NCBI GenBank assembly: GCA_041486265.1
Contig: JBGPLF010000002.1
Coordinates: forward strand, 1 to 41,990
Source of the DNA: a bacterium
Lineage (GTDB): Bacteria; Sysuimicrobiota; Sysuimicrobiia; Sysuimicrobiales; Humicultoraceae
Length of the DNA: 41,990 bases
Direction of reading: 5' to 3'
The notes below the pieces were generated by a model. That model was not told the origin of the DNA, made no database searches, and saw only the letters and a program-made list of their open reading frames with translations. The position numbers and the translations under genes were made by a program. Below, piece by piece: positions 29,162-30,763 of this stretch; the first letter of the stretch is position 1; each line of letters opens with the position of its first letter.

Positions 29162-29389
29162 ATGGCGCGCAAGGTCGTCACTCAGTACGCCGTTTTTCAC
29201 AACATTGGCGCAGGCTCGGACCTCGTGTTCTATTACCAGGGCGGAGGGGCAGACTCGGTCCTGGGAATTCCGTTTACCGAAGCGGCCTTCATCGTGGATC
29301 TGCTCCGCAACGAAAAGCCGATGTCCTACGACCACAGCTTGAAGCGGCTGTCCACCTATACGCCGGAGCCGGTTGGCGAGGGGGAATAG
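29162..29389 (+). CDS. 75-aa protein of unknown family; paralog of the N-terminal domain of the next gene
   Basis: Strong SD AAAGGAGG 7 nt upstream of ATG 29162. Gapless hand alignment to residues 1-75 of ORF 29393 gives 52/75 identities. Confidence 0.7.
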   Translation: MARKVVTQYAVFHNIGAGSDLVFYYQGGGADSVLGIPFTEAAFIVDLLRNEKPMSYDHSLKRLSTYTPEPVGEGE

Positions 29390-29392
29390 GCC

Positions 29393-30763
29393 GTGGCCCG
29401 CAAGATCGTCAGCAGCTACGCCGTGTTCGAGAACCTCGGTGGAACGCGAGACATCGTGTTCTACTACCGGGGCGGAGGCGCGGACTCGGTGAGCGGTGTC
29501 AGTGCCGCCGAGGCAGATTACATCGTAGACCTGCTGCGCAACGAGAAACCCCTCTCGTACGATCACATGCTGAAGCGTCTTTCCACCTGGAGTCCCGAGG
29601 CGGTGGGCGAGGCCGAGATCAGCCCGAATCTCGATAGCTGGCTGAGTGCCCATCCATCTATCGCGGCCAGCCTTGTCTGGGAAGATTCCGGCGGTTCGCA
29701 CGCCTGGTCGTCGTGGAGCGCGGGTTGGAAAGCCCAGCTGCGTCAGGCGTTCGACCTCGCGCGAATCCGCAGCTCGATTTCGGTCGCGGATGTTCCGCCC
29801 AACCAGGCGACGTTGGCCGATAACCAGCAGGTGACGACGATCCTGGCGCCGGCCGACGCCTGGGCCTACTTCAAGGCGAGCGTTGCTCAGACGCTGGCAG
29901 CCGAAATAGGACAGCAGTTGCTGTGGTCGCTCCAGGCATACTCCGCGGACCAGCTTGCTCAGTTATTCGATAGCCGCGAGATGTTTCTCTGGAATCCGTC
30001 GCCCGCCGGCTATCGAATCGACTCGATGCACGGTCACATCGTGCCCGCGCCGCCCGCGCGCAGCTATGAGTTTCTCGGAACCGCGGGTCTGATCGCAAGC
30101 ACGCTGCTCGACACGCTCACGCGCGTCGTCAATTGGTGTCGCGCAAACTTAGTCCATTTCAGTGGCGGAACCACGGCGGCGAACATGGAGGACCAGTGGC
30201 AATACCGCGGATATCCTCCGATGACGCGCGTGCTGGCTGGCACGGCGCAGACCTCTCACCCGGAGTTCGGCATCATGCATCGCACCGCGGGATGTTGGGG
30301 AACGACAGGGTTCCTGCGCGCGCTGTTACGCGTCATCAACGTCCCGGTCAAGCTGGTTACTAACGCGGGACACGCGCAGCCGTGGTTCATGGCTGACTCT
30401 CGATACCTGAGCCATGGCGACGACCCCTACAACCAACTGACCAAAGCGACTCCGCCTATTCCGCCCGGTGAGATTCTGATCGACCAGACGAAGTTCGACG
30501 CGTGGTTTGGAGCCGGCGTCAGCGCCGCCGACAAATCCAACAACATCGGGCGTCGCACACGCGAGCTGGCGATCACCTATCTTCCGAATTATCTGCTCCA
30601 CGCGTATTGTGGAGACCTCGCAGCCGGAAAGACCCACGCAAACGGCCAAGTGTTCAGTATCTTCTCCGTGAACTACACGGTGGCTCAGCTCGAAGCGGGG
30701 AATCTGTGGGGCCGGATGGACGCAAAGATCGCGGGCTTCGGCGGTTGCGCGCACGTTCCGTGA
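29393..30763 (+). CDS. Two-domain protein: N-terminal copy of the 75-aa domain plus a C-terminal transglutaminase-like (papain-fold Cys-His-Asp) domain
   Basis: GTG start 3 nt after the preceding stop. The segment HRTAGCWGTTGFLRALLRVINVPVKLVTNAGHAQPWFMADSRYLSHGDDPY has the spacing and context of the transglutaminase-core triad (C301, H327, D343/D344). Confidence 0.7.
   Translation: MARKIVSSYAVFENLGGTRDIVFYYRGGGADSVSGVSAAEADYIVDLLRNEKPLSYDHMLKRLSTWSPEAVGEAEISPNLDSWLSAHPSIAASLVWEDSGGSHAWSSWSAGWKAQLRQAFDLARIRSSISVADVPPNQATLADNQQVTTILAPADAWAYFKASVAQTLAAEIGQQLLWSLQAYSADQLAQLFDSREMFLWNPSPAGYRIDSMHGHIVPAPPARSYEFLGTAGLIASTLLDTLTRVVNWCRANLVHFSGGTTAANMEDQWQYRGYPPMTRVLAGTAQTSHPEFGIMHRTAGCWGTTGFLRALLRVINVPVKLVTNAGHAQPWFMADSRYLSHGDDPYNQLTKATPPIPPGEILIDQTKFDAWFGAGVSAADKSNNIGRRTRELAITYLPNYLLHAYCGDLAAGKTHANGQVFSIFSVNYTVAQLEAGNLWGRMDAKIAGFGGCAHVP

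Follow-up and report, generated by a model that had tools for sequence, protein, structure and literature searches.

An enzyme accompanied by a free-standing paralogue of its N-terminal part follows a logic that is known from other systems. In Streptococcus pyogenes, the papain-like cysteine protease SpeB and its inhibitor Spi, a propeptide analogue, are products of adjacent, co-transcribed genes (Kagawa et al. 2005, cited in PMC2873492). Here, we analyzed a comparable arrangement in a 41,990-nucleotide (nt) stretch of DNA, in the following termed the window, from a bacterium of the Sysuimicrobiota (Humicultoraceae; assembly GCA_041486265.1, contig JBGPLF010000002.1, positions 1 to 41,990). 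A gene for a free-standing protein of 75 amino acids (aa) is directly followed by a gene for a 456-aa protein, a probable thiol enzyme, whose N-terminal domain (N-domain) is a paralogue of the small protein. The likeness to SpeB-Spi consists in a small free protein that is related to the N-terminal region of a thiol enzyme and encoded by the adjacent gene. In that precedent, SpeB is secreted as a zymogen by means of a signal peptide, and the Spi gene follows that of the protease. By contrast, the long protein of the window lacks a signal peptide, and the small gene precedes the long one, as is the case in what we call clade A. Moreover, nothing in the sequence or predicted fold of either protein relates it to C10 peptidases and their propeptides, and the small-protein family is large and mostly independent of the enzyme.

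Three further systems share parts of this logic. Ubiquitin-like (UBL) domain-bearing deubiquitinating enzymes such as USP14/Ubp6 are papain-type thiol enzymes with an N-terminal copy of an abundant free protein, which serves docking and stays uncleaved. This likeness is architectural only, as the locus described here is bacterial, the predicted fold is not a beta-grasp, and both a Gly-Gly terminus and a conjugation machinery are missing. In Fic proteins, an inhibitory helix is reportedly supplied either in trans by a small antitoxin (VbhA for VbhT) or in cis. The homologous module is likewise either a separate small upstream gene or a part of the enzyme, whereas here both forms occur together, and there is no sequence relation. 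Finally, in fibre and pilus systems such as FimA/FimH, the tip or cargo protein includes a homologue of the major subunit as one of its domains, so that a free subunit and a functional protein with a paralogous domain are encoded in one operon. Signal peptides, chaperone, usher, and sortase are absent here, and polymerization would be an analogy only.

The similarity between the free protein and residues 1-75 of the 456-aa protein is far beyond chance. BLASTP confirmed the gapless match reported in the preliminary description, with 52 of 75 residues identical and 62 of 75 positive at an E value of 1e-36. Both copies carry the motif P-E-x-V-G-E-x-E at residues 68-75, where the free protein ends and the fused protein continues into a domain that is indeed very probably enzymatic, judged by its invariant Cys, His, and Asp residues (see below). 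In the window, both open reading frames (ORFs) lie in one frame, separated by the TAG stop and a single codon. The codons of the terminal GEGE (GGnGAGGnGGA) double as a Shine-Dalgarno (SD)-like GAGG for the second gene. As fused copies and solitary small genes conserve the tail to the same degree, its constraint acts on the protein.

Homologue searches recovered the pair in Acidobacteriota, Chlorobi, Chloroflexi, Bacteroidota, Actinomycetota, and Proteobacteria. The 75-aa query returned 107 homologous clusters, nearly all of exactly 75 aa and 56-93% identical, with Nitrospira, Chlorobium, Anaerolineae, Myxococcales, Nibrella, Larkinella, and Kordia among the named sources. More than 300 clusters, mostly of 456-458 aa, were obtained with the 456-aa query, and locus tags and contigs of the homologues place the small and the long gene side by side. 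A scan of one genome per species yielded 73 loci with the catalytic part of the long protein, and a metagenome scan provided 80 additional loci with the small protein. Junction statistics were calculated from 41 distinct tandem loci. The free plus fused arrangement and the P-E-x-V-G-E-x-E terminus proved to be conserved across phyla in both the homologue search and these tandem loci.

The short junction in the window could be taken as one gene read as two, i.e., stop codon read-through or a sequencing or annotation split of a protein with two N-domains and a catalytic domain, given that the two ORFs are in frame and only TAG plus one codon apart. The tandem loci contradict this explanation, which we consider hardly credible. 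In 33 of the 41 loci, 1-4 nt lie between stop and start (3 nt in 21), each of these four values being represented; a shared reading frame occurs in only 25, and all three stop codons are used by the small gene (TAG 25, TAA 12, TGA 4). Each second ORF begins with an ATG or GTG of its own and is preceded by an SD-like GAGG inside the tail codons, and no fused protein with two N-domains and a catalytic domain is found among the more than 300 homologues. Because of the 1-4 nt gaps, the variable frame, and the use of all three stops, we regard the genes as translationally coupled; they presumably form one operon and would then be co-transcribed. A scan for promoters and terminators yielded no informative signal.

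Beyond the pair itself, nothing in the surroundings is constant. In four loci, one each from an Acidobacteriaceae metagenome-assembled genome (MAG) and Nibrella and two from Chlorobium phaeobacteroides, 3 nt separate the end of the small gene from the start of the long one, and all other genes differ. In the closest relative (88% identity) the pair is followed by BrnT/BrnA, in Anaerolineae its neighbours are Phd, NmeDI, and an nSTAND-WD40 protein, and in Kordia it lies next to a gene for a 1611-aa helicase. BLAST clustering of the neighbours revealed no conserved third gene beside the pair, which behaves as a mobile two-gene unit tending to land in variable regions. A functional link to the S1-like and C11 peptidases encoded upstream in the window, as considered in the preliminary description, was not borne out: both are absent from all ten other contexts examined, including the 88%-identical relative, and with neighbour genes differing in every genome they are not part of the module. 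Together with the nearby DUF4157 protein, which is also absent from every other context, they were ruled out as partners. As a side observation, a divergent Fur-family regulator lies just upstream of the small gene in two Chlorobium loci with the pair (L003, 9051-9482; L004, 2435-2884) as well as in L103 (4274-4690), an unrelated locus from a metagenome in which the small gene is solitary; this adjacency may be due to chance.

The small protein is far more widespread than the enzyme. An exhaustive profile search of 1.84 billion representatives yielded 235 clusters (50% identity) at an E value of at most 1e-3, nearly all of them 73-81 aa long and ending at or within a few residues of the acidic tail. 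Enzyme fusions account for only 4 of the best 150 profile matches. The family signature consists of Tyr9, the motif D-[LIM]-L-R-N-E-x-P closing the helix, and E-x-V-G-E-x-E at the C-terminus, represented in the free protein of the window by DLLRNEKP and EPVGEGE. The enzyme is a neighbour in 18 of 51 metagenome loci with at least 1 kb of downstream sequence and in 10 of 22 with at least 1.5 kb on both sides, the remainder being solitary or tandem; overall, no more than about 40% of the sampled loci have the enzyme as a neighbour. Solitary small genes were found inside a cluster of fdhD and formate dehydrogenase genes, by Fur, by the genes for cysteinyl- or methionyl-tRNA synthetase (CysRS, MetRS), and by a B12-radical SAM gene. 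Some family proteins hold two to three repeats of the small domain in one chain, and tandem genes also occur. On this distribution, the small protein is an autonomous module of which the enzyme has acquired a copy. As the family is far wider than the enzyme, the small domain probably performs a function by itself, which the enzyme would exploit, and its mostly solitary occurrence argues against a role tied only to this enzyme.

Two individual observations concern this family. In the loci L082-L084, the 76-aa protein P0238 is encoded by a solitary gene (1139-1369 in L082) that overlaps the end of fdhD and precedes the genes for the Fe-S and molybdopterin subunits of formate dehydrogenase. The proteins P0241, P0291, P0315, and P0339 contain two or three tandem small domains joined by linkers of 25-55 residues, and P0241 terminates in a CxxC...CxxC zinc-ribbon-like segment.

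The small protein matched no entry in Pfam, NCBIfam, PADLOC, or PHROGs. Sequence and profile searches of the PDB gave nothing significant, with three chance-level matches of the family profile (E 0.16-0.67), and literature searches, both for the motifs and for operons that combine a transglutaminase-like enzyme with a small protein, were without relevant result. AlphaFold2, run with 51 homologues, predicted a confident fold (predicted local distance difference test, pLDDT, 90) of three strands (residues 4-13, 19-25, and 30-36), a helix (38-50), and a two-stranded hairpin (54-57 and 62-65), followed by the less ordered tail; the fused N-domain adopts the same predicted fold within the full-length model. 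Foldseek searches against the PDB and BFVD gave nothing significant (best E 0.2-0.3), the partial matches at E 0.3 or worse being half PH domains, chemokines, and chromo-shadow domains. The small-protein family appears to be new at the family level and, going by the model, possibly also at the fold level.

The suggestion of a ubiquitin-like fold, raised in the preliminary description as a guess next to a remark on the similar length, did not hold. The predicted order of three strands, helix, and two strands is not the strand-strand-helix-strand-strand mixed sheet of the beta-grasp fold, no ubiquitin or beta-grasp structure occurs in the Foldseek top 50, and the C-terminus is G-E-G-E instead of Gly-Gly, so that the small protein does not match a ubiquitin-like modifier. 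Pup-type modifiers are disordered proteins with a GGQ or GGE ending that act with PafA/Dop ligases; the small protein does not match this type either, as it is confidently folded and no glutamine-synthetase-like ligase is encoded in the contexts examined.

The long protein is probably a thiol enzyme, as suggested by residue conservation. In all 64 diverse bacterial and archaeal relatives compared, Cys301, His327, and Asp343 are unchanged, as are W269, Y346, and the greater part of the S-H-G-D-D-P-Y motif. The AlphaFold2 model of the full-length protein is of high confidence (pLDDT 94; predicted template modelling score 0.82), only residues 69-75, the acidic tail, falling below 50. In this model, helix 300-313 starts with Cys301, and the hairpin after it has His327 at the beginning of its second strand (327-332). 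The residues follow each other in the order Cys, His, Asp at spacings of 26 and 16 residues, which is near the spacing of yeast PNGase, and the predicted layout is that of papain-like or transglutaminase-like thiol enzymes.

The assignment to a particular family is less firm. As in the superfamily of PF01841 (transglutaminases, PNGase, and bacterial "transglutaminase-like cysteine proteases"), the Cys, His, and Asp of the long protein occur in this order, with a helix starting at the Cys and the His placed on the hairpin that follows, whereas about 300 of its residues, mostly helical, have no counterpart there. PF01841 (Transglut_core) was the only recurring Pfam family, matching 24 of 50 members always on the Cys helix, with a best E value of 2.9e-4 that is below the curated threshold. 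An hhalign comparison with one true transglutaminase-family protein placed Cys on Cys at E 0.027; against a 25-sequence profile of the transglutaminase family the alignment was again in register on the Cys and not significant (E 0.26). Foldseek of the long protein against the PDB gave nothing below E 0.2, and apart from the weak PF01841 matches in Pfam there was no match in PADLOC, NCBIfam, or PHROGs. A distant transglutaminase-like member is therefore possible on these alignments. Neither the small-protein family nor the enzyme family is described in the libraries and literature searched.

The long protein of the window starts with MARKIVSSYAVF and has no signal peptide. Relatives without the N-domain, many of them secreted, begin with a signal peptide, lipobox, or membrane anchor, with a Lys/Pro-rich stretch, or, in Methanobacteriaceae, with a helical domain, and several of them add LTD, an LDL-receptor-B propeller, a type IX secretion system (T9SS) tail, CARDB, or a beta-helix. 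Because of these signal peptides, anchors, and extracellular modules, the family appears to be often extracellular. Cys406 (30608-30610) and Cys452 (30746-30748) are conserved in about 60 of 64 relatives and jointly lost in three independent lineages (L062, L065, and L072), which suggests that they form a disulfide or a shared site; a disulfide would be odd in a protein without signal peptide. In eight archaeal relatives from Methanobacteriaceae and a Euryarchaeota MAG (L044, L045, L047, L049, L051, L052, L067, and L073), a helical region of about 66 aa replaces the N-domain (LIPELINKL...LGKFLIEGDYLT...); by eye, we take it to resemble the N-terminal domain of type II secretion ATPases.

The ratio of nonsynonymous to synonymous substitution rates (dN/dS) of the free copy between genomes is 0.05-0.3 (0.12 and 0.09 against the two closest orthologues), with synonymous sites near saturation; the free copy is under purifying selection and not a decaying duplicate. 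In both halves, free copies are more conserved than fused N-domains (aa identity 0.65 and 0.75 versus 0.57 and 0.67). A functionless leftover of a neutral tandem duplication, as might be proposed for head-to-tail copies that undergo gene conversion, is contradicted by this conservation and by the preservation of the 75-aa length in about 100 clusters across phyla, and we regard it as extremely improbable.

Matched copies exist in two gene orders. In clade A, which includes the window, the 75-aa free copy lies upstream of the enzyme gene. In clade B, the N-domain carries an insertion of about 35 aa, and a free copy of about 111 aa with the same insertion follows immediately downstream; in two loci (L005 and L006) a further 57-aa gene follows this free copy. 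Likewise, both copies of a Desulfobacteraceae genome share the lineage-specific ending YWTEGPDILWTGREPVGEEE. In the divergent branches of a neighbour-joining tree, free and fused copies cluster according to lineage, and in its core group according to type. Free-versus-fused identity is higher within than between genomes, both for codons 45-75 (0.80 versus 0.69) and for codons 1-44 (0.61 versus 0.53; permutation p ≤ 0.001 each), and the difference persists after removal of loci with recent conversion. A single old duplication alone predicts equal identity within and between genomes, and the higher identity within genomes thus reveals that free and fused copies evolve in concert, partly through gene conversion. 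Recent conversion of the 3' half is visible in the identical codons of identical residues at L011 (29 of 30), L025 (25 of 28), and L014 (18 of 26); the window, with 11 of 25, is at background.

In addition to these shared features, the 5' half holds type-specific residues, namely T7, H13, and mostly Q26 in free copies and S7-S8, E13, and R19-D20 in fused ones. Gln26 of the free copy (Glu in the fused one) was considered as a transglutaminase donor site and dropped, since position 26 is too weakly conserved in either copy. The motifs are better kept in the free copy: in clade B it retains VDLLRNEKP and EPVGEGE, and the fused copy reads LLLNEKP and EFTGETE. Lipoprotein forms of the enzyme in Larkinella (signal, N-domain, and enzyme; L008, L018, and L022) have no free copy, and their RNEKP motif and acidic tail have decayed. 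Larkinella ripae possesses such a lipoprotein form plus a canonical pair.

Our tentatively favoured explanation, possible rather than probable, is that the free protein binds the paralogous N-domain of the enzyme and thereby docks or regulates it. The free protein would be made first, probably in excess, and would meet the N-domain through like-with-like contacts in which the LLRNEKP turn and the acidic tail may take part. An assembly of small proteins would thus serve as docking site or regulator of the enzyme, which would thereby resemble a fibre-tip or cargo protein with its copy of the major subunit. Several lines of evidence argue for such binding: the persistence of matched free and fused copies in two gene orders; the recurrence of the pair in many phyla, its genes being 1-4 nt apart in at least 33 distinct loci and its flanks always different; the concerted evolution that keeps the copies of one genome alike; the autonomy of the small domain, whose tandem genes and repeats are a usual sign of self-association; and the motifs, which are better kept in the free copy and decayed where no free partner exists.

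Four points weigh against it. Gene conversion can make adjacent repeats evolve in concert as a neutral side effect. The motif decay without a free partner comes from essentially one lineage. BLAST clustering of neighbours and Pfam searches of ten neighbours found no recurrent partner of the solitary small genes and so gave no hint of the small protein's role. Finally, matched copies are also expected if both bind one and the same site on the catalytic domain.

The last point leads to a second explanation, on which co-variation of the copies is expected because both fit one catalytic domain. Here, the N-domain would be a cis-acting inhibitor or chaperone (pro-domain), and the free paralogue would occupy the same site in the cytoplasm as an inhibitor in trans and silence the enzyme until a trigger arrives, in the manner of SpeB-Spi or of toxin-antitoxin systems. 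The preliminary description had listed an inhibitor or mimic of the intramolecular domain among its suggestions; this remains a live alternative that we rank below binding to the N-domain and consider unlikely overall. It has the SpeB-Spi precedent (PMC2873492) and the invariant Cys-His-Asp set of the enzyme on its side. An upstream small gene with a strong SD sequence and 1-4 nt coupling is also what would be expected of an antitoxin or inhibitor made in excess, and the neighbours are often of toxin-antitoxin or defence type (VapBC and a PLD-like protein in the window; BrnTA, Phd, NmeDI, nSTAND, and ThsB-TIR elsewhere). However, the resemblance to toxin-antitoxin systems is confined to gene layout, neither protein matching PADLOC or toxin-antitoxin models, and the secreted-zymogen logic of SpeB is inapplicable to a clade A enzyme without signal peptide. 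Secreted relatives of the enzyme manage without any N-domain, the motifs decay in N-domains without a free partner, and most family members are solitary in housekeeping-type contexts (fdhD and formate dehydrogenase genes, CysRS, MetRS, Fur) with their motifs kept.

A third explanation starts from the tail. The thiol domain might cut its own linker after ...EPVGExE or trim C-terminal extensions, which would set free an N-domain with a C-terminus identical to that of the free protein. The small protein would then be a modifier or targeting tag, comparable to ubiquitin precursors or to the UBL-DUB (deubiquitinating enzyme) architecture. The free protein stops exactly where the low-confidence stretch of the fused chain lies, some family members have 1-15 residues past the tail (clade B free copies end in ...GEGE-H), and repeat proteins exist. 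A papain- or transglutaminase-type thiol enzyme could hydrolyze or transfer such a bond, and vasohibin, a transglutaminase-like peptidase, trims acidic C-terminal tails. Nevertheless, the fold is not a beta-grasp and Gly-Gly is missing, residues past E75 are not conserved, long linkers separate the repeats of multi-domain proteins, whose last repeat can be without a tail, and most small genes have no such enzyme nearby. In addition, genes of the E1, E2, JAB, MoeB, or PafA/Dop type were found in none of the ten contexts with Pfam labels. We judge this explanation to be quite improbable.

A bolder explanation can also be envisaged, in which the small proteins represent a new self-associating or tag-like kind that is widespread in bacteria, and the transglutaminase-like enzyme, as a dedicated partner, joins, processes, or cross-links their assembly by means of its built-in copy. 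Though rather improbable, this would amount to a bacterial counterpart, with an unrelated fold, of the eukaryotic logic of a free modifier plus a UBL-bearing thiol enzyme. If the favoured explanation is true, the data describe a large small-protein family across phyla that lies outside domain libraries and solved structures, and a widespread, often secreted and unannotated Cys-His-Asp enzyme family in bacteria and archaea. They would further describe an enzyme whose N-terminal copy is kept in step with a free partner, in either of two gene orders, through gene conversion and selection. With its small size (75 and 456 aa), no signal peptides, and confident models, the pair allows binding, inhibition, and processing to be tested directly, and the enzyme family may be of interest as a new protein-modifying or peptidase activity.

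The features of the pair and of its surroundings in the window are compiled in the following table, together with the loci of clade B.

Table. Positions of the gene pair, its functional elements, and neighbouring genes in the window, and loci assigned to clade B
Feature	Positions	Strand	Basis or remark
SD-like AGGAGG	29150..29155	+	Read from sequence; 6 nt before ATG of the free small gene
Gene of the free-standing 75-aa protein	29162..29389	+	ORF listing; 75 codons, ATG start, TAG stop
Coupling junction	29378..29392	+	Sequence; GAGGGGG of the GEGE codons (SD-like), stop TAG, spacer GCC
Long gene	29393..30763	+	ORF listing; 456 codons, GTG start after the 3-nt spacer GCC
N-domain of the 456-aa protein	29393..29617	+	BLASTP, predicted fold; paralogue of the free protein, 69% identical
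Linker I-S between acidic tail and catalytic domain	29618..29623	+	Sequence and model
Catalytic domain, about 380 aa, probable thiol enzyme	29624..30763	+	Hidden Markov model boundaries, model pLDDT 94
Cys301 codon, predicted nucleophile	30293..30295	+	Invariant in 64/64 relatives; N-terminus of helix 300-313
His327 codon	30371..30373	+	Invariant in 64/64 relatives; start of strand 327-332
Asp343 codon	30419..30421	+	Invariant in 64/64 relatives; within SHGDDPY motif
pRiA4b ORF3-like gene	22789-23388		
F420H2-quinone-reductase-like gene	23647-24066		
MazE/AbrB-type antitoxin	24167-24481		
PIN-domain toxin	24478-24870		4-nt overlap with antitoxin, VapBC-like pair
DUF4157/eCIS_core protein	24873-26237		Starts 3 nt past the PIN toxin gene
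S1-like peptidase and clostripain-family C11 peptidase	26680-29094		Adjacent, same strand
Kelch-repeat protein, 562 aa	within 31847-35338		C-terminal tail Cys-rich, then Lys-rich
593-aa protein with two PLD-like domains	within 31847-35338		21 nt after the Kelch gene
Clade B loci	L005 (7508-7843), L019-L021, L028, L035		

The pair is located in a region of the window (22000-35400) with a G+C content of 0.57-0.63 compared with 0.64-0.74 in the flanks, which looks like a genomic island. Within it, the S1-like protein has a Trypsin_2 match below the Pfam threshold and no PDB relative, so that the Glu-specific type named in the preliminary description is a tentative label. The 593-aa PLD-like protein shows weak matches to the defence proteins ZacB and DrmC. 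The low-G+C stretch also holds cupin and MsrB genes.

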